Source: an uncultured Clostridia bacterium (lineage in GTDB: Bacteria; Bacillota; Clostridia; TANB77; CAG-508). Taken from it: a stretch of DNA of 53,790 bases. Location of the stretch: the NCBI GenBank assembly GCA_944386695.1, contig CALXCB010000003.1:1-53790 (forward strand). The letters run 5' to 3'. Within the stretch, counting starts at the first letter, position 1. Every line of letters starts with the position of its first letter. Under the pieces are notes generated by a model. It searched no databases. It was not told the DNA's origin and saw only the letters and a list, made by a program, of their open reading frames with translations. Shown here piece after piece: positions 20,039-41,809 of this stretch. A program made the translations under genes and the position numbers.

Positions 20039-23000
20039 TTATTTTACAACTTGAACAAAAATATTCAAATTCTCTCCATTAATAGGTGTTTCTACATAAT
20101 TTTTGTCAGGCTCATTATATAAAATCTTCAAAGCTAAAGTATCATGTTTTATTATATCTTCATATTTCTTAACAACTTTTTCTAACATTTCATTTCCAGA
20201 AACATAGAGATTTATATTATCCATTACTTCAAAACCACTATCTTTTCTCATATTTTGAACTTTTGATAAAATTTCTCTTAAGTAACCTTCCTCTTTTAGC
20301 TCAGGCGTTATTGTTGTTTCTATTACTACACCAATTTCTCCTGCCCCGCTAAATGCAAAGCCTTCTTTTCCATGCATTGTAATTAGAAGATTTTCTTTTG
20401 ATAGAGGAATTTGAGTATCATCAATTTCAATATATTCTATTTTTCCTGCTTCTACTTTACTCGCTAATTCCATTTGGTTAAATTCTGCTATTTTTTGCCT
20501 TATTTTAGGAATTAGTTTTCCATATTCTTTTCCAAGTACAGGAAGGTTTGGCTTTATTTCAAAACTTACATAGTCCTTCATGTCAGCACCCAAAACAACT
20601 TTTTTGACATTTAGCTCCTCTTTTACAATATCACTATAATATTCTGGAAGTGTTTTTACTGATATTAACATTTCAGAAAGTGGTTGTCTGTTTTTAATAT
20701 TAACAGAGTTTCTTGCACTTCTTCCAAGTTTCACTATTGTGTATGCTAAGCCCATTTCTTCTTCTAATTTTTTGTCGATTTCTTCTTCATGGACTTCTGG
20801 CCAATTGCATAAATGTATACTTTCTGTAGCTTTTGCGTCTAATCCTACAACTAGATTTTGATAAATTTCTTCTGTTATAAATGGCACAAATGGTGCTGCC
20901 ACTTTACATAATTCTACTAATACTCTATATAAAGTTACATAAGCTCCTATTTTGTCATCTGAAAGCTCTGTTCCCCAAAATCTTTCGCGATTTCTACGTA
21001 CATACCAATTTGATAAACTATCTGTAAATTCTCCTATTTGTAAAGCTGCTCCTGTTATGTCATATTTTTCTAGTTTTTCGTCTATCTCTTTGATTAAGGT
21101 ATTTAATTTAGAAATTATCCATTTATCCATTATGTTGTTTGATTTAAAATCTGCATATTTTAATGGATTAAATTGATCTATTTCTGCGTATAAAACATAG
21201 AATGAATATACATTCCAAAGTGTTGCTAAAAATCCTCTTTGAGTTTCTTGCACATTTTCTAGAGAAAGTCTAGTTGGAAGCCATGGAGCAGAACATGTAT
21301 AAAAATGCCATCTAGTTGCATCTGCACCAACTGAATCTAGTAATAACAATGGGTCTACTCCATTTTTCTTAGATTTAGACATTTTTTGACCTTTTCCATC
21401 TAATACATGACCTAGCACTATACAATTTTCAAAAGGAGTTCTGCCAAATAATGCTGTTCCAATAGCTGTTAGTGTATAGAACCATCCTCTTGTTTGGTCA
21501 ACTGCTTCTGAAATGAATCCTGCTGGGAATTCTTTTTCAAATAAATCTTTATTTTCAAATGGATAATGTAGTTGTGCAAAAGGCATAGAACCAGAATCAA
21601 ACCAGCAATCAATTACTTCTTTATATCTTGTCATTTCCTTACCACATTCAGGACATTTTAGATGAACATTATCTATATATGGTTTATGAAGTTCAATATC
21701 TTCTGGACAGTTTACTGCTTTTTCTTTTAATTCTTGGATAGAACCAATACATTCTTGGTGTCCACATTCGCATTTCCAAACTGGAAGTGGAGTTCCCCAA
21801 TATCTGTCTCTTGAAATTCCCCAATCTATAACATTTTCCAAGAATTTTCCAAATCTTCCTGTACGAATGGTATCTGGGTACCAATGTACTTTATTATTGT
21901 TTTCAACTAATTCATCTCTTAAGCTTGACATTTTTACAAACCAACTTTCTTTTGGGTAATAAAGAAGTGGTGTGTCACATCTCCAGCAATGTGGGTATGA
22001 GTGCATATGTTTTTCTTTAGAGAATAATTTATTTTCCTTTGCTAGCCATTTGCAAATATCTTCATTACAATCTCTTACAAATCTTCCTGCCCAAGGCTCT
22101 ACTTCTGGTACAAATTTTCCGGCTTTATCAACTAAATTGATAAATGTAATTCCATTTTGTTTAGCAACTAAACTATCATCTTCACCATAAGCAGGGGCAA
22201 TATGAACAATTCCTGTACCATCTGTTAAAGTTACAAAATCTCCGTGGATTACTTCGAATGCTTTTCCTTCTACTGTTCCAAAAGGCATCAATCTTTCATA
22301 TTTTGTACCTAAAAGTTCTTCTCCTTTAAAAGTTTTTAAAATTTCATATGGAGTTTCTCTTAAAACTAATTCTAATAAATCTTTTGCTAAAATATAATTT
22401 TCATATTGTGGTTCTTCTTCTGTTCCAATATTAGCTTTTATTAAAACATACTCATATGATTTATTAACACAAAGTGCTAGGTTTGATGGAAGTGTCCAAG
22501 GTGTTGTTGTCCAAGCAAGAATATATGTATCTTTTTCCCATCCTTGATTTTCTTCTACTTTAAATTTTGCAATACAAGTTAAATCTTTTACATCTTTATA
22601 TCCTTGTGCAACTTCATGAGATGAAAGTGCTGTACCACATCTTGGGCAATATGGCATTACTTTATGACCTTCATATAATAAACCTTTTTTCCATAACTCC
22701 TTTAAAGCCCACCAAACAGACTCTATATAATCATTATGATAAGTAACATAAGGATGGTCCATATCTACCCAAAAACCTACTTGCTCTGTCATCTTCTCCC
22801 AGCTACTTACATATTTAAAAACACTATCTTTACATTCTTTAACAAACTTTTCTACTCCATAATCCTCAATCTGCTCTTTACCTGATATTCCTAACTTTTT
22901 TTCTATTTCAAGCTCAACTGGAAGACCATGTGTATCCCAACCAGCCTTACGAGGTACATAGTATCCTTTCATAACCTTATATCTTGGTATAATATCTTTC

Positions 23001-23197
23001 ATAACTCTAGTTTCAATATGACCAACATGAGGCATTCCATTAGCTGTAGGTGGTCCATCATAAAATGTGAAATATCTTTTTCCTTTGTTTTTATCTAAAT
23101 TCTTTTTTATTATATCTTTTTCTTTCCAATATTTAGCTACATTTTTCTCCATACCTACATATCCATCAGGTAATTCCACTTTTTTATACATAATCAA
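20039..23197 (-). CDS. ileS: Isoleucyl-tRNA synthetase (long, type 2 form)
   Basis: HIGH-type motif [17 protein letters not shown] ([11 protein letters not shown]), CP1 editing region; 1052 aa. Confidence 0.95.
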
Positions 23198-23220
23198 TCT
23201 CTCCTTTACATAATATTTTT

Positions 23221-23300
23221 CATTGGGGTCGTTTCCTTTTGAGAAATTTTTTTCATTGGGGACAGTTCCTTTTGCGAAAGGGTCGTTTCCTTTTGAAAAA
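23221..23300. repeat. Three direct copies of the GC-rich intergenic repeat unit
   Basis: cattggggtcgtttccttttgagaaa / cattggggacagttccttttgcgaaa / gggtcgtttccttttgaaaaaaa. Confidence 0.9.
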
Positions 23301-23304
23301 AATT

Positions 23305-23562
23305 TTATGATTTATAATTCCCTCCTTGCTTTTTTATCTCTTGTAATTCAAATCTATATTTTTGTTTTTCATTTGGATATTTCTTATGATCTACTTCTGA
23401 TAAAAACATCTCATAAGGCCTAATATACAGCTCTTCATCTCCATATAGACCTCTATAGACTACATATTTTTCCTTTGTTTCACTATGAGTTGCCACATCT
23501 TCTACTATGTAATAATCTCCTTTAAAATGTCTGTAAATTCCTTTAATTTTTAACTCATTCAT
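23305..23562 (-). CDS. DUF1653-like small protein
   Basis: [48 protein letters not shown] matches the remembered DUF1653 pattern. Confidence 0.7.
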
Positions 23563-23569
23563 TTTCTTT

Positions 23570-28757: not shown

Positions 28758-30194
28758 TTACAATACCTTACCTTTAAAATACCACATATGATCTTCTATT
28801 ATCTCTACATCAATAATCGAATTAATCAAATCTTTATCTCCCTCAAATACAACAACTTTATTACTTTCAGTTCTGCCTGTAAGCATTTTTTCATTATTTT
28901 TACTTGGACCTTCAACTAATACTTTTTGGGCAGTTCCTAAATAAGATTTATTAGTCTTAGCAATTTGACTTTCAACTAAATCTTTTAATCTATCAAATCT
29001 CTTATGTTTTATTTCTTCTGGAATTTGGTTTGGCATTTTATCTCCAGGAGTTCCAACCCTTCTTGAGTAAATAAACATAAATACTTGTTCATAACCTACT
29101 TTTTTGACAACATCTAAAGTATCTTCAAAATCCTCTTCTGTCTCTCCTGCAAAGCCTACAATTATGTCTGTTGTAAATTTGATGTTTGGAATTTTTGTTT
29201 TCATTTTTTCTACCAGATTTAAATATTGCTCCTTGGTATATTTTCTATTCATTACTTTAAGCATATTTGTACTTCCTGATTGAAGTGGTAAATGAATGCA
29301 TTTACATACTTTTCCACAATCAGCAATTGCTTCTATTACGTCATCTGTAAAGTCTTTTGGATGAGGTGAAACAAATCTTATTCTTTCAATTCCTTCTATT
29401 TGATTAATAGCTCTTAATAATTTGGCAAAAGAATTTATTTCTTTATAATCTCCCGCTTCATCTTTCAATTTTCCTTGCTGTATTGCTTCCATTTCTGAAC
29501 GTAAATACGAATTTACATTTTGTCCAAGCAACATAATTTCTTTATATCCTTGAGATGCCAATTCTTTTACTTCATTTATAATGTCTTTTGGTTTTCTGCT
29601 TCTTTCTCTTCCTCTTACATAAGGTACTATACAATAACTACAAAAATTATTACAACCATACATTATAGTAACAGAACCTTGTGTTTTGCTATTTCTTTTT
29701 ATTGGTAGGTCTTCATATACATTACCATCTATATCTATTACATCTTTAATCTTTTTTTGGTCTTCTAATACTTTATATAAATCTTCTGGTAATTTATGTA
29801 GTGTATGTGTTCCAAATATTATATCGATATAAGAAAATGACTTTTTTATTTTATCTAATATATGCTGTTCTTGCATCATACATCCACCAACTGCAATAAT
29901 TAGATTATTTTTTTCTTTCAAATTTTTTAAATTTCCAATTTTTCCAAATAGTCTTTCTTCTGCATTTTCTCTAACACAACAGGTGTTGAAAACTGCAAGA
30001 TTAGCATCTTCTATATCTTCAGTTTTTCTATACCCCATTTCTTCTAGCATACCACAAATTTTCTCTGAATCATTTTCGTTTAATTGGCAGCCCATTGTCA
30101 AAATTGTGTATTTTAAGTCTTTATTTTCAATTAGTTTTGCTACCTTTTGCATATATTGTTTTTGAATCTCTATTTCTTGTATTTCTGTCATCAT
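28758..30194 (-). CDS. miaB: tRNA-i6A37 methylthiotransferase MiaB
   Basis: UPF0004 N-domain (TMGCQLNENDSE), radical-SAM CNNFCSYCIVP, and a TRAM-like C-terminus. Confidence 0.9.
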   Translation of the reverse strand: MMTEIQEIEIQKQYMQKVAKLIENKDLKYTILTMGCQLNENDSEKICGMLEEMGYRKTEDIEDANLAVFNTCCVRENAEERLFGKIGNLKNLKEKNNLIIAVGGCMMQEQHILDKIKKSFSYIDIIFGTHTLHKLPEDLYKVLEDQKKIKDVIDIDGNVYEDLPIKRNSKTQGSVTIMYGCNNFCSYCIVPYVRGRERSRKPKDIINEVKELASQGYKEIMLLGQNVNSYLRSEMEAIQQGKLKDEAGDYKEINSFAKLLRAINQIEGIERIRFVSPHPKDFTDDVIEAIADCGKVCKCIHLPLQSGSTNMLKVMNRKYTKEQYLNLVEKMKTKIPNIKFTTDIIVGFAGETEEDFEDTLDVVKKVGYEQVFMFIYSRRVGTPGDKMPNQIPEEIKHKRFDRLKDLVESQIAKTNKSYLGTAQKVLVEGPSKNNEKMLTGRTESNKVVVFEGDKDLINSIIDVEIIEDHMWYFKGKVL

Positions 30195-30227
30195 TATTCC
30201 CTTTCCTAAAATATTTGTTTTAATTTA

Positions 30228-33200
30228 TTAGTCAGATGTAGCAATATCGATTAATTCTTCATATGAATTTACTGTAACATATAAAATATCTTCATTACAT
30301 ATTTTAGCAAAAAGTTTTTTTGCACACTCTATTTTTGCATTTTCAATTGCTCTTAACTCTGATCTATTTGGACTTCCTTTAGTCTCCACAATAAAGTATT
30401 TATGTTTGAATTTTTTATTATTAAATATAACTATCCAATCAGGATTATAGTTTCCGACAGGTGTTGGAATTTTAAAATCTTTTGGTAATTTTGCATATAC
30501 TTCAACTTCTCCTGTTTCTAAGCAATTTGCAAAATTCTTTTCATTTGTCGAATCAGTAATTAAATAATCATATATATTTCTTTTTACTTCTATTACATTA
30601 TCACCAAGTCTACCTTTTACATTTTTTAAAGTAAATATATCGTCATCATAAACTTCATCTATAGTTTTATATTTTATACCATCTATAATAGTAAGTGCTT
30701 TTTCTTCATTAATTAGACGACAAGCCTTTCTAATAAACTCTTCTGAATTATCTTTATATTGTTCAAAAACTTTACTATCAATATTTTTCAATATATTAAT
30801 TGTAGTTCTTCTTGTTAATCCTGTATCTTGTGAAATATCACCTATTAAATCATATTTTGTAAAAACTTTTGCATAATTGTCATATATTTCTGTTTCTCTA
30901 GTTGTTTCATGCATTGATGTTTCTTCTCTTAATCCAGATGCTGTAATAACATCATTTTGCCCTCCAGTTGTTATTCTAACTCTCATTTTACTGATTTTTA
31001 ATTTTTCATTTAGAGCTTTTATTGAGTTTTTAATTAATTCTTCACTATCAAAATTCACTTCATAAATTGCTTTGATATTGATTTGCTTCCATAAATTTTG
31101 AAATTCTGCTTTTTCGAAATTTTCATTTGTCTCAATTATAGATGGAAGATTGTTTTTATTTTCATTTTCAACAGGAAAATCTCTATTTGAAAATAATTTA
31201 TTAATTAAGTTGATATAATCTTTTTCATATCCTTCTATAATTTCAGGTATTTTTATAGAGTTGTTTTCGATATCTTCTTTAAATTCTTGTGTTATATTTT
31301 TGTGTTTATCTATATAATTATTATCTCTGCAATCAAATAATATTTCTGAAAAAACATCTTCGTCAATAATTAAGATATCTTCAGGATTATTATTATTTCG
31401 TAATCTAGTACCTATAAATAAATCTTGCGATAATTTCTCATGGATTTTTCTAGATAAATCTTCTGCAATTTCTTTTTGAAGAGCTTTAGCAAATGATTCA
31501 TAACTTTCACTAGCAATAACAGTTAATGTGTTTATATCAAAAAAGTTCTCCTCTAGTACTGATTCATCCATTCTATCTCCATTTTGATTTACACATATAC
31601 GCAAACCTCTTCCTATCTCTTGTCTTTTACTAATTTCTGAATTGTTTTTTTTCAATGTACAAATTTGAAAAATATTAGGATTGTCCCATCCTTCTCTAAG
31701 TGCTGAATGTGAAAATATAAATCTTACTGGTTGGTCAAAAGAAAGTAACTTTTCTTTATCTCTCATTATTAAGTCATATGCATCTTCATCTGAACTTATT
31801 TTGTTAGACTTATCATCTATTTCTGAATCAATAAATATAGAATCTTCGTATGTTCTTCCTTTAGATGCTTTTTTATCAATTGAAAAATACCCACTATGTA
31901 CTTTTTTATTTTTTAAAGATTCTAAATATTTCTTATATTCATTATCTGCATTATTATAAACTTCATTATAAATATGACTATACTCTTCTTCAAATATTCT
32001 TGCGTATTCACCTTTATTATCTTTTCGATTGTAATCTTTATATTTTTTTACTTCATCTATAAAAAATAAAGATAATACTTTTATACCTTTTCTAAAATAT
32101 TCTTTTTCTTTTTCAAAATGGGCCTTTATTGTCTCTCTTATTTGAATTCTTGGCAAAAAGTTTTTATTTAAACTGCCTGCAACTTGCCCTGTTTTTATAG
32201 ATTCACCATTTGTAAAATATACTATATCAAAATTAGCATTTTGTGCATTTATTTCACTTACAACATAACCTTTATATTCTGCTAACTTGTCAGATAGCTT
32301 ATATAAGTCATCTCCCTTTTTTAAGGTTTTCATCATTCTTTTAGTTCCGTTAGTTGATTTGACTTCTATTTCCATCTTAGCAATTGGTGCTTTTTTGGTT
32401 ATTTCTACCCTTTCTAAATACAAATATGCACTTTCTGATTTATCATGTAAAATTTCAATACCTTTTACATTTATCTTCTTTACTAATCTTTGATTATAAG
32501 CATCAACTGCATCTAATCGATATATCATATTATATATATGATCTTTTTTGTGTGTAGCAGAATATCTTAATATAAATAATGGATTAAATATTTTTAAATA
32601 TTTTTCTGTTTTTCCCATTTTTTGTGGCTCATCAATTATTAATATTGGTCTTGTCGCTTTTAATACATCAATTGGTTTTCTAGTTTCTAATTTATCTATT
32701 ACTTCATATATTCTTCTTTTAGCCACTGATTTAGCATTTGGGTTAAAATTAAAAGCTTGATAATTCATTATTATTACTTGAATACTTGATTCTTCTGCAA
32801 AATCTTTTATATTATTTATATTTGAAGAATCACTTGAATCATATATAGAATATATTATATTTTTTTCATATATTCCTTTAAAATGCTCTTCTGTTACTTG
32901 AAATGATTTTAATACTCCTTCTCTTATTGCAACACTTGGAACTATTACTATAAATTTGCTCCAACCATATACTTTATTCAACTCATACATTGTTTTTATA
33001 TAGGTATATGTTTTTCCTGTACCTGTTTCCATCTCTATTGAATAATTTAGAATTCCTTGGTCATCAGTATAATCTAAATGATTTTCTTTTTGAACTTTTC
33101 TTATATTGCTTCTTATTTCGTTGTCTGACAATTCTATTTCCTTATTTCCAAAATATATTATATCTTCTTCATCACTTTCATTCCAGTTAGTAATATCTCT

Positions 33201-33320
33201 TTTTTTAGTTCTTTTTCCAATTAAATTAATTTGACTTCCTTTAGGCTGACCTGTAAAGCATTCTATTACAGCTTGGGTTGCATCTTCTTGATATTGCTGC
33301 TTTTTAAATTTTAATTTCAT
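30228..33320 (-). CDS. res: Type III restriction endonuclease Res subunit (SF2 helicase plus PD-(D/E)xK nuclease)
   Basis: METGTGKTYTYIKT (motif I), IIDEPQK (DEAH-like), SALREGWDNPN (motif VI-like), and C-terminal NPDWIVIF...YFIVETKG. Confidence 0.88.
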   Translation of the reverse strand: MKLKFKKQQYQEDATQAVIECFTGQPKGSQINLIGKRTKKRDITNWNESDEEDIIYFGNKEIELSDNEIRSNIRKVQKENHLDYTDDQGILNYSIEMETGTGKTYTYIKTMYELNKVYGWSKFIVIVPSVAIREGVLKSFQVTEEHFKGIYEKNIIYSIYDSSDSSNINNIKDFAEESSIQVIIMNYQAFNFNPNAKSVAKRRIYEVIDKLETRKPIDVLKATRPILIIDEPQKMGKTEKYLKIFNPLFILRYSATHKKDHIYNMIYRLDAVDAYNQRLVKKINVKGIEILHDKSESAYLYLERVEITKKAPIAKMEIEVKSTNGTKRMMKTLKKGDDLYKLSDKLAEYKGYVVSEINAQNANFDIVYFTNGESIKTGQVAGSLNKNFLPRIQIRETIKAHFEKEKEYFRKGIKVLSLFFIDEVKKYKDYNRKDNKGEYARIFEEEYSHIYNEVYNNADNEYKKYLESLKNKKVHSGYFSIDKKASKGRTYEDSIFIDSEIDDKSNKISSDEDAYDLIMRDKEKLLSFDQPVRFIFSHSALREGWDNPNIFQICTLKKNNSEISKRQEIGRGLRICVNQNGDRMDESVLEENFFDINTLTVIASESYESFAKALQKEIAEDLSRKIHEKLSQDLFIGTRLRNNNNPEDILIIDEDVFSEILFDCRDNNYIDKHKNITQEFKEDIENNSIKIPEIIEGYEKDYINLINKLFSNRDFPVENENKNNLPSIIETNENFEKAEFQNLWKQINIKAIYEVNFDSEELIKNSIKALNEKLKISKMRVRITTGGQNDVITASGLREETSMHETTRETEIYDNYAKVFTKYDLIGDISQDTGLTRRTTINILKNIDSKVFEQYKDNSEEFIRKACRLINEEKALTIIDGIKYKTIDEVYDDDIFTLKNVKGRLGDNVIEVKRNIYDYLITDSTNEKNFANCLETGEVEVYAKLPKDFKIPTPVGNYNPDWIVIFNNKKFKHKYFIVETKGSPNRSELRAIENAKIECAKKLFAKICNEDILYVTVNSYEELIDIATSD

Positions 33321-33332
33321 GTGTCTTTTCTC

Positions 33333-35393
33333 CTATATAATATTTAATACATCTTCTGGCTTTTCTTTCAATAATTTTTTTACTTTTTCATATAAATTTA
33401 CTTTATCACTATCTTTTTCAAATGACTTTTCTTTAAATACAATTTTTGATGGTTTAATTTCACATATTTTTTCAATCAGATTTTTATTAATTTTGTCATC
33501 AAAACATGCAACTAAAGAATTTTCATTTACAAAATAGACATTGTTGTTTAATATTTTCTTTTTTTCAATTTTTAAATCAAGAGTTAGTCCTAGATCTAAC
33601 ATGACTTGAATTAGTAGGTCTTCTCCACTTCTATCTTCTTTTATATTTGTTTCAAATAAATCTAGTTGTGCTTGATTTATTTTCTCTGGTTCATAATATA
33701 TATCTTTCATATTTGATGTATCTATTTTAAATACTCTAAATCCATAATCTATATCTGCTTTTGTTTCTTCTTTTATTTTTTTACCAGAACGAATTATTCT
33801 CTCTTCTCCTAATTCAGATAAATAATGCTTTCTATTACAACTATCTAAAAATTCTATTGTATCTTTTATTGTTTTTTTATTTTCTGGACCAGTTGCTATT
33901 TTATAACTTCTATCTAGATCTTCATCTATTTGTACCATTATATATTTTCTTCTTTTTAAATCTTTTGAATTCAACTCCATAACTGAATGCGCAGTTGATG
34001 CAGAACCAGCAAAGAAGTCCATTACAATATCATCATCTGCAGTTGTCATTTTAATTATTCTATTTAATAATTTTAAAGGTTTTTTACCATTGTTGTATTG
34101 AACTCCTCCTTCTTGTGCAATTCCTCCTGTTGTTTTTATATCTTGCCAAAAATCACATGGGTTTTTATATATATTTTCATCTGCAAATATAACTTGGAGA
34201 CGAGGTTGCTTAGTATTGTAATTAAAATCTGTTACATAGTAAAATAAGATATTTTCTTTTGATACAGAAGCACTTATTTCTTGACCTTCATCAATTCCTT
34301 GTTCTTTAACTAAATTTAATAAGCTTGTAGATCCTGCTGTTTTGATTATTGCGTATGCATGCTCAAAGCACCAATCTTGTGCCTTATCTTTATTTTTAAT
34401 ACCTATCTCATTTAGTTTTTCTTTTAAAGATTTTCTTTTAGCTTTACTTAATATTTTTTTAGCTTGATTTATATCCTCTTTAGACTTATATTCTTTTTCT
34501 TCTATTAATTTTAATTTTTCTCTATCTTCTATTGTAAAGTTTTCTAAAAATATATTATTTTCTTTATCCCATTCTTTAATCATATATGTATCGATTGCTT
34601 CAAATCCTTTAAATTTAGCTTTTTTGTAAAATAATATATATTCTTTTATTTTTGGAAATCTCTCGTTTTTATGTGCCATCTTTACTCCAGATGCTTCACT
34701 CATTTTTACTGCTATACAATTTACAAAATTGTTTTCTCCAAAAATTTCATCACACATTTTCTTTAAATTTGCCTGTTCATTATCATCTATACTTATAAAT
34801 ATACATCCATCATCTCTTAGTAAATTTTTTGCTATTCTTAATCTTTCATACATCATTGTTAGCCAATCACTATGATATCTTCCATTAGATTCCAAATTTG
34901 AAACCAGTTTTCTATTGTTTTCATCAATCTGATCAGAATTTTTTAATTCATCATCAACTGTATGTCCATAATCATCTTTATAGATTAAATCTGACCCTCT
35001 ATTATATGGAGGATCTATATAAATACATTTGATTTTATTTAAATATGATTCTTGTAATATTTTTAAGGCCTCTATATTATCTCCTTCAATATAAATATTT
35101 TGAGTTGTATCAAAATTAATTGATTTTTCTCTCAATGGTCTTAATGTTTTTGTTGTAGGTGTATTCGATACTACCATTGCTTCTTTCTTTCCTGGCCAAT
35201 TTAGTTGATATTTTTCAGTATTTCCTTGTATGATTTCATATGATAGCTCTTGCCTTAATAGATCAAAGTCTATACGTTTCCCATTTTTGCTTTCTACTAC
35301 ACAGTTTGGAAATAATTTTCCTATGTTTTCTATATTTAAACTCACTATATCTTTCGATTTCATATCTAGTTGTTTTATTTGTTTATTGTTCAT
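33333..35393 (-). CDS. mod: Type III N6-adenine DNA methyltransferase Mod subunit
   Basis: IYIDPPYNRGSD (motif IV DPPY) precedes VMDFFAGSASTAHS (motif I FxGxG), which is beta-class order. It lies 12 bp upstream of res. Confidence 0.9.
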   Translation of the reverse strand: MNNKQIKQLDMKSKDIVSLNIENIGKLFPNCVVESKNGKRIDFDLLRQELSYEIIQGNTEKYQLNWPGKKEAMVVSNTPTTKTLRPLREKSINFDTTQNIYIEGDNIEALKILQESYLNKIKCIYIDPPYNRGSDLIYKDDYGHTVDDELKNSDQIDENNRKLVSNLESNGRYHSDWLTMMYERLRIAKNLLRDDGCIFISIDDNEQANLKKMCDEIFGENNFVNCIAVKMSEASGVKMAHKNERFPKIKEYILFYKKAKFKGFEAIDTYMIKEWDKENNIFLENFTIEDREKLKLIEEKEYKSKEDINQAKKILSKAKRKSLKEKLNEIGIKNKDKAQDWCFEHAYAIIKTAGSTSLLNLVKEQGIDEGQEISASVSKENILFYYVTDFNYNTKQPRLQVIFADENIYKNPCDFWQDIKTTGGIAQEGGVQYNNGKKPLKLLNRIIKMTTADDDIVMDFFAGSASTAHSVMELNSKDLKRRKYIMVQIDEDLDRSYKIATGPENKKTIKDTIEFLDSCNRKHYLSELGEERIIRSGKKIKEETKADIDYGFRVFKIDTSNMKDIYYEPEKINQAQLDLFETNIKEDRSGEDLLIQVMLDLGLTLDLKIEKKKILNNNVYFVNENSLVACFDDKINKNLIEKICEIKPSKIVFKEKSFEKDSDKVNLYEKVKKLLKEKPEDVLNII

Positions 35394-35500
35394 AAAATTC
35401 TCCCATTCTTTTTGATTTCTATACCTTTACATTTATACCACATTCTCAAAAATTTTTCAATTAGAGACAGACCTTTTTTGTAAATTTTCAATTGGGTGAC

Positions 35501-36019
35501 CATTTGGTATCGAGTCTTTTTTGTCATTGCACATTTGGAACCAGGTCCTTTTTGTACATCCCCCTCCTGGGGCTTGGCAATGTATATATCAAAACTCAAT
35601 GAATACTTATCATTACATTCAATAAAAATTTCTAAATATAGAAAATGAGCCTCTTTCACTCAACCTCGTAAAATTATAGATTTAAATTTTAAATAAATTA
35701 CGAATGTGATTGGAGAAATATTAGAAAATCTTAAATCATTTTATGGAAAGAGTTCATGCTTGCCATGGAAGGGTGCCATAAAATGATTTTAGATTTTCTT
35801 ATTTTTCGTATTGAGCCGAGGAATTTATGAAAAATTTAAATCTATAATTTTTCGTGCGTGAACATTACTCATTTTCTATATATAAGAAATTTTATATTTC
35901 ATTTCAATCTAACGTATTCATTGAGTTTTGATATATACATTGCCAAGCCCCAGGAGGGGGATGTACAAAAAGAACCTGGTTCCAAATGTGCAATGACAAA
36001 AAAGACCTGGTCCCAAATG
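35501..36019. repeat. ~520-bp imperfect palindrome: 93-bp near-identical inverted arms (35514..35606 / 35914..36006) around a diverged palindromic 307-bp core
   Basis: Manual reverse-complement alignment gives one mismatch in the arms (35547 c vs t). Inner matching blocks are atatagaaaatgag, aaaattatagatttaaatttt and agaaaatct(t/a)aaatcattttatgg. The apex loop is 35747..35775. Confidence 0.9.
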
Positions 36020-36031
36020 TACAAATAGTGA

Positions 36032-36733
36032 CTAACTATGTTTCCTACCTTTATGTGAGTATAGCCAAAAAACACCCGCTCCAATGGCAACTATCAATAA
36101 TATAGCTGCATATATTAATATACTCATTTTCCAATCTCCAACAGCAAGTTGCGAACCAGCAAGAGTTGATGTTACCACTGAAGGAAATCTTGCAAATGTC
36201 GAAATCAAAATAAACATATGTGGTTTTATAGGTAACAATCCTGATACATATACTAGTAAATCTTTAGGTGTGCCGGGTATAAAAAATAATACAAACATTA
36301 TTATTTCTATTCCAGCAGGATTTTGAAATAATTTACTATTATCGATTTTGGCAATTTTTTCTTTATCACAAAAATCATATACGAACCTTCTCCCAAATTT
36401 TCTAACTAATAAAAATATCATTGTAGATATTATAAAGGCTGATATCATTATAAATACAGTTCCCCACAATGCTCCATAGCACATCCCTGCCAAAATTTCT
36501 ATTGGTTCTCCTGGTACAATAATTAAAAATATTTGTGCAACTTGCAGACCAAATAGTGATAATAATCCATATATTCCAGAATCATCTACCTTTTTTTTAA
36601 AAGCTATTTGTCCTTCTGTTGTTGATAAATTTTTCATCACAGGAAATAAATATGCAATAATTCCTATAATTAATACTAAAACTACTATTGCTAATATTAT
36701 TTTAAATATTTTTATTTTATGTTTTCTACTCAT
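36032..36733 (-). CDS. TVP38/TMEM64 (DedA-related, SNARE-associated) family membrane protein
   Basis: Multi-TM protein. The VPGEPIEILAGMCYG motif is typical of the family. Confidence 0.7.
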   Translation of the reverse strand: MSRKHKIKIFKIILAIVVLVLIIGIIAYLFPVMKNLSTTEGQIAFKKKVDDSGIYGLLSLFGLQVAQIFLIIVPGEPIEILAGMCYGALWGTVFIMISAFIISTMIFLLVRKFGRRFVYDFCDKEKIAKIDNSKLFQNPAGIEIIMFVLFFIPGTPKDLLVYVSGLLPIKPHMFILISTFARFPSVVTSTLAGSQLAVGDWKMSILIYAAILLIVAIGAGVFWLYSHKGRKHS

Positions 36734-37323
36734 ATAATCCCTTCTTTTTTTGGTTTATATATTAATAAATTATTTTTTAATATATCTGCTACATTTATTT
36801 TTGGAGATTTATATTTTCTTAAAAGTCCTGTATATATTTCTTGAAGTTCTGCTACATTTTTAAAATCCTCTGGTCTTACTACAGTTGGCAAATTCATGTC
36901 TATATCTGCTTGTTCTATTATGTATTTAACAAATTCGGCACAATAAAATGAGTATTCTTTTCCTATCTTTTTATGAAATCCTGCTGCAAATAAGCCAAAA
37001 ATATTAAATTTATATTTATCTTTTTCTATTTGAATTTGATCAATATTATTTTGCATAATTTGGTACTGCTCTTCAGTTACTCTTAAAGAATAAACTTTTG
37101 CTCTGGTTCTTTTAAATCTTTTGAATGTTCCTTTATCTATATGTTCATGTACAAATCCACCCCAAAAAGGATTGTATGGATTTAGTCTTCCAAAACTATA
37201 CATTTCGTTTAATTCTATATCAAGTGATATAGAAATATGGGAGAATTCATCTTTTGTAAAACTTTTTATAATTCTTGATAACAGTGTTCCTGTGTGTGTT
37301 AATACTATATATATTTCTTTCAT
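36730..37323 (-). CDS. Hypothetical protein, YiiX/permuted-papain (NlpC/P60 superfamily)-like
   Basis: His before Cys (EFSHISISLD ... SFYCAEFVKY), as in permuted papain-fold amidases. It overlaps the downstream gene by 4 nt. Confidence 0.45.
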   Translation of the reverse strand: MKEIYIVLTHTGTLLSRIIKSFTKDEFSHISISLDIELNEMYSFGRLNPYNPFWGGFVHEHIDKGTFKRFKRTRAKVYSLRVTEEQYQIMQNNIDQIQIEKDKYKFNIFGLFAAGFHKKIGKEYSFYCAEFVKYIIEQADIDMNLPTVVRPEDFKNVAELQEIYTGLLRKYKSPKINVADILKNNLLIYKPKKEGII

Positions 37324-37330
37324 AAATCAA

Positions 37331-39031
37331 TTACCTACTTCCATTTATATTTCTATCAAATTGTACATCTGTTGCTATAAAATAAATTCCATATACTAAA
37401 ATAAGCATTCCTAATATAATTGCTATATTTCTCCATATTTCTTGTAAAGTTACTGCTACTTTAAATATTTGACTAACACTTATAATTGCTGGAATACTAA
37501 CTATTATTGGTACTAACATTGGAATTGCGAAATAGAAAAATAATTGTTTAAATATAGTTCTATTCATTTGTAGTTCGTCCATTCCTAATTTTTTCAATAG
37601 TTCGTATCTATACTTATATTTCTCTGAATCACTTAATTGTTGTATAGCAAGAAGTGTTGCTGTTGCCATAATAAATATTAATGCAATGTAAAATGCTAAA
37701 ATTTTAACTTTTGTTCCCAACATTTCAATTTCGTTATTATCTTTTATATATTCTGTAAATACTTCTTTAGCTGTTTTCATACAATTGATAATTATTTCAT
37801 TATTTTGTAAATCTACTTTTTCATATCCTAAGATTTCTCTTAGTTTATTATAATCTGTAAGGCTCATTACATATTCTATTCCGTCCATACTTCCAGAATT
37901 AAATGCGGTTCCTTCTAAAGCTTTTGATATTCCTATAGATTTTATACAATATAATCTATATTCATACATATCTGTCACTTTTGTGTTTTTTTCTATATAT
38001 TCTTTATATTCCGAAAAGTCCCCATCTACTGTACTTACCATAATTTCAAACGGATAACCCATTTCTATCTCATTATTTAGTAAATTGTTCATAAGTAAAG
38101 CTACATTTCCTCCTATTAATATAATTGTAAACATTACTGCTATTGTTCCCATACTCAAGCTCATTGTATTGATTTTTGACGTCAAATTTCTGTATAAAAA
38201 CATATTGTCTTTTTTATATTTTCTTGATTTATTTTCTATATATCTCTTTACTATAAAACTTGATATACTAATATAAAATAAATAAATTCCTAATATAAGC
38301 ATTATTATCGAAATTAATATATTTAAGCCTTTCATATTATTCGCATCTGCAAATTCTTTATGGTTAATATATAATGCTGCTATTAATAATACTACAGATA
38401 CTATAAAAATTGCAATATTTCCCTTTGAATTTTTTATAATATTATTTTCATTTTTCTTATCTGCATATAACAAATCATATACTTTTGTCTTTTTTATTTT
38501 TCTTCTACAATTTAGCAATACTAATAAAAATATTCCAAAAAAGTAAATTGCTGTTATTCCTACTGCTTTCAAATTGAATTCTATTTCTATTTTATAGGCT
38601 TGTTCAAATAAGTTCATAATGATCGAAGTGAAAATTTGGTATAAAAAAGTACCTACTACTATTCCAAATATAAATGCTACCCCACCTATTAAAATATTTT
38701 CTAATGTAAACATTTTACTAATTGATTTTTTTTCTATTCCTAATATTTCATATGTTCCGAATTCTTTGCTTCTCTTTTCTAGCATAAAACGCATTGTGTA
38801 ATTAATAAGCCATGCCATAACTAAAATAATAATAATGCTTATTCCTGTTATAGATTTTGAAAAATATTTCATCCAAGAAGCAAGCTCACTTATATCTTTT
38901 GAAACAGCAATTGAGTTAAAACTAAACATTAATGCAACTGATATAATTACTGTTAAAAAATAAATACAATAGTCTTTTGCTTGCCTTTTAGCATTTCTAA
39001 AAGATAATTTACCTAACATCTCTTGCGTCAC
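37331..39031 (-). CDS. FtsX-family ABC transporter permease, BceB-like (10 TM, short extracellular domain)
   Basis: N-terminal LSFRNAKRQAKDY, TM clusters, and a central soluble segment of about 130 aa. It overlaps the ATPase gene. Confidence 0.75.
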   Translation of the reverse strand: MTQEMLGKLSFRNAKRQAKDYCIYFLTVIISVALMFSFNSIAVSKDISELASWMKYFSKSITGISIIIILVMAWLINYTMRFMLEKRSKEFGTYEILGIEKKSISKMFTLENILIGGVAFIFGIVVGTFLYQIFTSIIMNLFEQAYKIEIEFNLKAVGITAIYFFGIFLLVLLNCRRKIKKTKVYDLLYADKKNENNIIKNSKGNIAIFIVSVVLLIAALYINHKEFADANNMKGLNILISIIMLILGIYLFYISISSFIVKRYIENKSRKYKKDNMFLYRNLTSKINTMSLSMGTIAVMFTIILIGGNVALLMNNLLNNEIEMGYPFEIMVSTVDGDFSEYKEYIEKNTKVTDMYEYRLYCIKSIGISKALEGTAFNSGSMDGIEYVMSLTDYNKLREILGYEKVDLQNNEIIINCMKTAKEVFTEYIKDNNEIEMLGTKVKILAFYIALIFIMATATLLAIQQLSDSEKYKYRYELLKKLGMDELQMNRTIFKQLFFYFAIPMLVPIIVSIPAIISVSQIFKVAVTLQEIWRNIAIILGMLILVYGIYFIATDVQFDRNINGSR

Positions 39032-39879: not shown

Positions 39880-39967
39880 CAAAAGGGTCGTTTCTTTTCG
39901 CAAAAGGGTCGGTTCCTTTTGCAAAAGGAACCGACCCCAATGGTACCTATCGCCCCAATCGTCATCA
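39880..39967. repeat. Intergenic-repeat cluster with a perfect 32-bp palindrome (39906..39937)
   Basis: caaaagggtcgtttcttttcg, then GGGTCGGTTCCTTTTG/CAAAAGGAACCGACCC, then ccccaatgg...cgccccaatcg. Confidence 0.92.
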
Positions 39968-41715: not shown

Positions 41716-41800
41716 CATTGGGACCATTTGGACCGGTTCTTTTTGGTTCCGGAACCAAAAAGAACCGGTCCAAATGGCTCCCTGGCTCCTTGGCTCCTTA
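41716..41800. repeat. Intergenic-repeat cluster with a perfect 52-bp palindrome (41725..41776) and GGCTCC short repeats
   Basis: CATTTGGACCGGTTCTTTTTGGTTCC/GGAACCAAAAAGAACCGGTCCAAATG, followed by gctccctggctccttggctcc. Confidence 0.92.
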
Positions 41801-41809
41801 ACTCCTAAA

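Follow-up and report, generated by a model that had tools for sequence, protein, structure and literature searches.

The window, that is, the whole 53.8-kb stretch of DNA analysed here, has a GC content of about 26% and contains a palindrome of about 520 bp located between the gene of a TVP38/VTT-domain membrane protein and the mod gene of a Type III R-M system. The palindrome is separated from the TVP38 stop codon by 12 nt and from the mod ATG by about 108 nt; the positions that the initial annotation had assigned to these two codons (36032 and 35393, respectively) are both correct. The neighbouring genes are housekeeping genes, all on the minus strand (secA, relA, recJ, ileS, ispDEF, mutS and miaB). 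A Pfam scan of 28 window ORFs, each 150 aa or longer (32 are listed for the 53.8 kb), found no recombinase gene, as had already been remarked from the sequence alone. Beyond TVP38, the FtsX-type permease gene at 37331-39031 encodes 566 aa, compared with 688 aa in four of the related contigs described below (L007, L008, L011 and L012), the window carrying an in-frame 378-nt deletion. The features of the locus are as follows; those listed with no strand were not assigned one.

30228..33320, minus strand: Type III res (ResIII helicase and RE_endonuc domain; Pfam)
33333..35393, minus strand: Type III mod (N6_N4_Mtase; Pfam), the downstream neighbour of the palindrome
35501..35606: left arm, proximal to mod (93-nt near-perfect part at 35514-35606)
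35559..35606: unique stretch of about 48 nt on the inner side of the arm, mirrored at 35914-35961 (three alleles among strains)
35607..35913: invertible core, 307 bp (both orientations among contigs)
35607..35746: half-core H1, facing mod in the window
35747..35775: apex, with two promoter-like matches that straddle it, overlapping and divergent
35776..35913: half-core H2, inverted relative to its diverged paralogue H1, facing TVP38 in the window
35914..36019: right arm, proximal to TVP38 (inverted-repeat comparison)
36032..36733, minus strand: TVP38/VTT-domain membrane protein gene (Pfam)

Direct comparison of 35514-35606 with 35914-36006 gave near-perfect inverted arms of 93 nt whose sole mismatch is at 35547, exactly as first described. 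The repeat finder extended these arms to 106 nt (35501-35606 and 35914-36019) with 95% complementarity and a spacer of 307 nt. This 307-bp core is itself about 72% identical to its own reverse complement, and its halves align as an inverted duplication whose previously listed blocks are perfect or near-perfect; the initial annotation had seen in it an older inverted duplication, roughly two-thirds conserved, and this view is borne out. The apex (35747-35775) is non-palindromic and, as stated there, includes a CCATGG, at position 35763. The small ORFs carried by the two arms are mirror images of each other, again in line with the earlier description, and no noteworthy ORF is present in the palindrome. 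Folded as a single strand, the sequence reaches −281.6 kcal/mol as RNA (z = −24 against shuffles) and −177.8 kcal/mol as DNA (z = −27 against shuffles).

The outer ends of the palindrome are made of a short repeat, CATTTGG..TTTTTG, present in two copies per arm, with a degenerate copy at 35458. The initial annotation had spoken of two to three dispersed units at the ends; the unit is dispersed only under a looser consensus, CAAAARG..ACC.GGT.CC(A)AATG, which has nine copies in the window, all intergenic, when 0.2 are expected by chance.

23221..23274, minus strand: two tandem REP-like units upstream of ileS (motif search)
35458..35485, minus strand: degenerate REP-like unit a, outside the palindrome (repeat family D2)
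35501..35523, minus strand: REP-like unit c (motif search)
35532..35554, minus strand: REP-like unit d, CAAAAAGGACCTGGTTCCAAATG on the minus strand (repeat and motif search)
35966..35988, plus strand: REP-like unit d2 (motif search)
35997..36019, plus strand: REP-like unit c2 (motif search)
39922..39942, plus strand: single intergenic REP-like unit (motif search)
41725..41776, no strand: REP-like pair, two inverted units forming a perfect hairpin (motif search)

These outer units behave like REP/REPIN elements: they are short, partly palindromic, intergenic and often arranged as inverted pairs. Hairpins of three units of the same family follow genes in two GTDB MAGs (uncultured Clostridia, Hadza gut samples); the contigs bearing such hairpins in GTDB 'uncultured Clostridia' MAGs are L003, L005 and L006, and a 3-unit hairpin is found in L008 too. 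To our knowledge, no described family corresponds to this intergenic repeat, and no RAYT-type (Y1) transposase is encoded in the window. In Firmicutes, ileS is usually preceded by a T-box leader; Rfam detected none upstream of the ileS of the window (20039-23197; gap 23198-23569), where the tandem REP-like units are found instead. At 41777-41805, between the sortase gene and the next gene, short GGCTCC-type repeats (ggctccctggctccttggctcc) adjoin the REP hairpin.

The window forms part of an ENA metagenome scaffold, and contig L001 is identical to it. The locus was compared with same-species metagenome contigs (L numbers) whose TVP38 and Mod proteins are identical to those of the window or almost so. 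We call orientation A that of the window, in which H1 faces mod, and orientation B the flipped one. With TVP38 and full-length mod as flanks, A was found in five contigs (the window, which is L029, together with L031, L032, L033 and L026) and B in three (L036, L037 and L038), L036 spanning the region from TVP38 to mod. In each of these same-flank contigs the core matched at 99–100% in one orientation and at about 72–77% in the other. Orientation B was present in five further contigs in other contexts (L007, L009, L011, L012 and L013). The eight same-flank contigs come from eight samples and, as inferred from their names, from at least two assemblers. All orientation calls rest on short-read metagenome assemblies, and among the assembled contigs no single sample had both orientations of the same context. 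When the 56-aa ORF of the arm was searched against 5.8 billion proteins, its sole match was the mirror ORF on L026, which gives independent support for orientation A.

The haplotypes around the start of mod allowed us to count events. L026 (orientation A) shares a three-SNP haplotype with L036-L038 (orientation B), and L031-L033 (orientation A) have one further SNP in this region. Orientation is thus not tied to the mod-start haplotype, and at least two inversion events are required. That orientation might be fixed by lineage or context was considered, and this was overturned by L036-L038, which are flipped in spite of having the same flanks and haplotype. The flanks of L036, including the arm SNP at 35547, are identical to those of the window; since this SNP stays with the flanks, the crossover between the window and L036 is placed within the innermost 59 nt of the arm (35548-35606). 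A crossover or conversion outside the inner arm is suggested by one contig only (L026), and the argument for variable crossover points along the arm would be a thin one. Altogether, these contigs show, at the level of assembled sequence, that inversion between the arms is recurrent in nature.

A segment flanked by inverted repeats may be traversed either way during assembly, and the difference in orientation could be an artefact of this kind. The arms are longer than common k-mer sizes, and many contigs do end inside them (L002, L009, L013-L015, L028, L030, L034, L035 and L039); such ends are the effect of an inverted repeat on a de Bruijn graph and are therefore no evidence of heterogeneity. 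On the other hand, the longest exact repeat does not exceed 59 nt owing to the arm SNP and, in L031-L033, to an additional indel, which is below ordinary reads and below k = 87 (a value inferred from the contig name of L038) and makes an artefact unlikely; in the lineage with 93% TVP38 identity the arms are shorter still. Moreover, the distribution of A and B over the same-flank contigs (five and three) and over the five others (all B) is consistent within haplotypes and not random. We regard an assembly artefact as extremely improbable.

We then looked at how arms and core vary among lineages. In the 93%-TVP38 lineage (L011-L013 and L041), the inner arm differs from that of the window at 8–9 of its 48 positions. 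In L012 one arm nevertheless complements the other without a mismatch; the identity of its arms to the window arms is 81%, and RNAalifold counted eight mirrored, compensatory pairs between the two sequences. L042 has the same core between heterologous arms, one of type 3 and one of type 1, that are only about 65–70% alike; it tolerates about 18 broken arm pairs. The distal arm of L013 also begins as type 3. A sub-block of the arm, GGGCTTGGCA.TGTATATATCAAA, is kept between types 1 and 2. The arms, which are the least conserved part of the element, evolve in concert, as these mirrored changes show. The initial annotation had proposed that the segment was recombination-prone, and this part of its first hypothesis stands, with both orientations of 35607-35913 between identical flanks and arms that vary together.

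The core is far more constant: corrected for orientation, its identity across lineages is 99.3–99.7% (about 72% uncorrected), when that of the TVP38 gene beside it is only 92.3–96.7%. Among its seven variable columns, three are unpaired and the other four make up two compensatory pairs (RNAalifold), one of them with a U-G intermediate in three sequences. Of 168 pairs, 10 have undergone compensatory double changes. The pattern seen in the core would follow equally from selection that maintains pairing and from templated correction of a quasi-palindrome, and its conservation and unbroken pairs hint at a function beyond that of a mere recombination-prone repeat. One flipped strain (L036, at about 2060-2120) has a 30-bp tandem duplication (CTTAAATCATTTTATGGAAAGAGTTCATGC) beside the apex, a change that suggests local replication slippage at the tip of the hairpin.

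Such a function might be structural. The palindrome could act as a long hairpin ending the TVP38 operon, that is, as a transcript-end stabiliser, an RNase III target, an insulator or a cruciform, its flipping being incidental. The extreme folding energy, the compensatory changes and the fact that every variable core column is unpaired or compensatory are all in favour of this reading, as are the codirectional genes, since read-through from TVP38 would transcribe the palindrome, and the REP-like units that fill similar intergenic gaps elsewhere in the window. However, gene conversion, or template switching in a quasi-palindrome, would produce mirrored changes just as readily, L042 tolerates its broken arm pairs, and L008 and L010 do without the element. 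Nor is there a terminator-like stem followed by a U-run: no intrinsic terminator was predicted in 35000-36500, and none in L036 and L031. Rfam reported nothing at the gathering threshold over the whole window, and a permissive Rfam search of 35300-36200 gave only spurious matches to eukaryotic miRNA and snoRNA hairpins, far below threshold. Of the hairpin insulator or terminator initially suggested, what remains is a very stable hairpin whose pairs are kept by compensatory change, without the U-run of a terminator, and we consider a primarily structural role distinctly unlikely.

Another possibility was that the core carries a promoter whose direction matters. The promoter scan found promoter-like matches in the palindrome no more frequently than in shuffled sequences. 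At the apex, two mirror-equivalent matches with 9 of 12 consensus positions apiece point outwards, ATGGCA-17-TAAAAT through H1 and TTGCCA-16-AATGAT through H2. A perfect TATAAT, read by eye, belongs to a block kept in both halves and thus faces both ways. Outside the palindrome we noticed a further candidate:

35432..35460, minus strand: candidate own promoter of mod (TTGAAA, 17 nt, TGG-TATAAA; by eye)

Its −10 hexamer is without the final T and it was not flagged by the promoter scanner; mod may plausibly have its own promoter there. In L007, L041, L042 and L043 the start codon of a regulator gene is located only about 25–30 nt beyond the arm, so that its transcription in these contigs requires either upstream read-through or a promoter within the palindrome. 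What a flip swaps may be two leaders that are alike and both face outwards; these signals do not point to an ON/OFF effect, and an effect of orientation on mod-res expression is possible but probably small. As for the switch controlling mod-res that had been proposed initially, no orientation-specific promoter emerges, and the scanned ORFs of the window include no recombinase.

These observations bear directly on the main rival reading, in which the core is a programmed inverton flipped by a site-specific recombinase encoded elsewhere, each flip turning mod-res or, in other strains, the response-regulator/ABC cassette up or down. Both orientations do occur in the same context, 307 bp is a typical inverton size, the core is highly conserved, and the element in every case lies directly against an operon's 5' end, with the response-regulator start close to the arm as described above. 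The sub-block shared by arm types 1 and 2 could be read in the same sense, and Clostridioides difficile has recombinases that work in trans (RecV). Against this, no recombinase was found among the scanned ORFs of the 53.8 kb, arms of 93–106 nt are far beyond the usual recombinase sites and show up to 19% divergence between lineages and about 30–35% in L042, and the promoter-like matches are at shuffle level, the apex pair being symmetric (9/12 each way). We hold this reading to be possible but rather unlikely.

The gap between TVP38 and mod varies in content as well as in orientation. In L008 and L010 the inner part of about 430 bp is missing and only a 3-unit REP hairpin is kept, after which come shortened mod (235 aa) and res (276 aa) genes. 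In L007 the order is palindrome (orientation B), a response-regulator/ABC/histidine-kinase cassette, the same 3-unit REP hairpin and the truncated R-M genes. The palindrome and the RR/ABC/ABC-2/HK cassette of this contig (8703-13128) are bounded by 37-nt direct repeats of the REP unit, and recombination between these repeats would give exactly the arrangement of L008. No recombinase gene is present in the L007 cassette, whose histidine kinase is split into two fragments. The truncated genes are located as follows.

L007 13129-14663: truncated Type III R-M (Mod 235 aa, Res 276 aa)
L008 4014-5548: the same
L010 1241-2775: the same

The Mod protein cluster has many fragments, among them ones of 238, 307 and 416 aa, and the Type III R-M system is decaying in part of the population. 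As in L007, H2 faces the regulator gene in L041 and L043. In L042 (1-1095) H1 faces the regulator cassette, and a BofC_C-like gene that is absent from the window lies on the other side; L042 may represent another copy in the genome or, alternatively, a large rearrangement that broke within the palindrome. L040 has the cassette and no palindrome. In the 89%-TVP38 lineage (L027) unrelated genes come directly after TVP38, and species with about 80% TVP38 identity have other, unrelated genes in this position and no palindrome. L027 shares a 13-mer, ATTACATTCAATA, in place with H1; the idea that H1 is the ancestral sequence downstream of TVP38 was tried and rejected, the local alignment being no better than shuffles. 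As far as the assembled arrangements go, they show the locus to be a rearrangement hot spot, where the R-M system is intact or truncated, the RR/ABC cassette is inserted, or the palindrome is absent.

Such a distribution could also result from transposition, the element being MITE-like and non-autonomous, inserted into a REP hairpin, and its two orientations reflecting independent insertions. It has terminal inverted repeats and a length under 600 bp, L008 and L010 with their 3-unit REP hairpin resemble an empty site, and the core of L042 is in a second genomic context, next to the BofC-like gene. Unlike what is expected of a MITE, though, there is no target-site duplication: filled (window) and empty (L008) sites share at most 2 nt, 'CA', at the junction. 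The arms, which would be the sites of the transposase, are the least conserved part, and the A and B junctions are identical down to the arm SNPs, which fits inversion in situ and not re-insertion. Copies elsewhere were not found either. The palindrome is single-copy in the window and in every contig examined; the arm motif had no match in GTDB genomes (exact or gapped pattern scan), the core blocks and the conserved arm block had none in JGI metagenomes or IMG/VR (pattern scans), and a blastn search of phages and plasmids with 35440-36030 found nothing. The REP/MITE-like composite elements of the initial annotation are thus upheld for the dispersed REP-like outer units and for the hot-spot location, but not for the inner 400 bp, which was not found as a multi-copy element in the window, the fetched contigs or the pattern scans. 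A MITE-like origin of the two orientations appears to us highly doubtful.

The reading that we favour, and consider probable if by no means assured, is that of a recombinationally active quasi-palindrome: an old inverted duplication with homogenised outer parts, flipped through its own repeats with no neighbouring invertase. It would have arisen by inverted duplication of a module of about 250 bp made up of about 50 nt of arm, about 150 nt of half-core and one or more REP-like units. The two copies would have diverged by about 30% throughout, and in some strains they are still about 65–70% alike along their full length. In the lineage of the window, gene conversion between the outer parts would have produced the near-perfect inverted repeats of 93–106 nt, and exchange between these arms flips the 307-bp core, presumably by general homologous recombination or by a RecA-independent proximity mechanism rather than by a dedicated invertase next door. 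The hairpin-prone geometry would keep the halves complementary through mirrored changes. The element sits at the 5' edge of exchangeable cassettes, either the Type III R-M system or the response-regulator/ABC module, with the REP-like repeats of the locus mediating insertions and deletions, and each flip swaps the half-core, H1 or H2, that faces mod.

One may go further and suppose that the quasi-palindrome is a symmetric, recombinase-independent flip-flop module, in which two paralogous promoter/leader halves are set back to back in a self-correcting palindrome that serves as a portable 5' junction for defence or immunity cassettes exchanged at a REP-guided hot spot, each flip picking the leader. 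We think this extension unlikely; if it were true, it would represent a new coupling of cassette exchange with expression switching in gut Clostridia. Likewise, should expression turn out to be orientation dependent, the locus would be the first case known to us of a Type III R-M system under control by inversion. Under the favoured reading, long inverted repeats would recurrently flip a non-coding segment in an uncultured gut Clostridia lineage with no invertase gene nearby, and pipelines built to seek short repeats with a recombinase close by would be prone to overlook or reject such cases. The natural variants would form a series of stages, from heterologous arms to homogenised arms, to flipped cores and finally to loss of the palindrome, and they would illustrate how REP-like repeats make one intergenic gap a hot spot for the gain, loss and decay of R-M genes.

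REP, REPIN and BIME elements are short, partly palindromic intergenic repeats of Proteobacteria. The units described here, of 21–23 nt, are likewise partly palindromic, intergenic only, arranged singly, in tandem, in inverted pairs or in 3-unit hairpins, and common to related genomes. In contrast to the proteobacterial elements, they have another sequence and a low-GC Clostridia host, no RAYT-type transposase is seen, and they form only the outer ends of the palindrome and not its 400-bp interior. Type III R-M systems normally phase-vary through simple repeats inside mod; unlike in such phasevarions, Tandem Repeats Finder detected no homopolymer or short tandem tract in or near this mod (30000-36800), including upstream of it. 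The mirrored substitutions that keep the halves complementary and the 30-bp apex duplication of L036 resemble the products of template switching in quasi-palindromes.

Invertible promoters are well known from E. coli fimS, Salmonella hin, the polysaccharide promoters of Bacteroides and the cwpV, flgB and cmrRST switches of C. difficile, and known invertons have repeats of about 10–40 bp, a dedicated tyrosine or serine recombinase and one directional promoter. As with these, a segment of a few hundred bp lies here between inverted repeats in an intergenic region, just upstream of an operon, and is found in both orientations. The differences are the length of the arms (93–106 nt) and their three diverged alleles, with no short conserved repeats of the recombinase-site kind, and the nearly symmetric core, from which no directional promoter stands out, in a window whose scanned ORFs include no recombinase. 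More than 75% of invertons are under 300 bases (PMC11602134); the invertons of Jiang et al. 2019 are taken here as they are cited in PMC11741434 and PMC11602134.

The two isomers of our locus are the same but for the direction of the segment that the repeats enclose, as in the flip-flop inversion between large inverted repeats of chloroplast genomes and of the yeast 2-micron plasmid. There the repeats are kilobase-sized or a dedicated recombinase (FLP) is at work, whereas here the scale is about 100 nt and the mechanism presumably repeat driven. The closest precedent is the pneumococcal spnIII (ivr) locus, a Type I R-M system, where inversion takes place on repeats of 85 bp and 333 bp without the recombinase of the locus and without RecA (PMC6620402). 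In both cases a segment in or beside an R-M system flips between long inverted repeats; our locus has long arms and no recombinase gene nearby, and at spnIII inversion persists when the locus recombinase is absent. The two differ in what is flipped and in how the flipping is known: spnIII flips the coding target-recognition domains of hsdS, thereby changing specificity, and its switching has been proven in clones, whereas the DNA flipped here is non-coding, quasi-palindromic and upstream of a Type III mod gene, and its two orientations are known from contigs of different samples.
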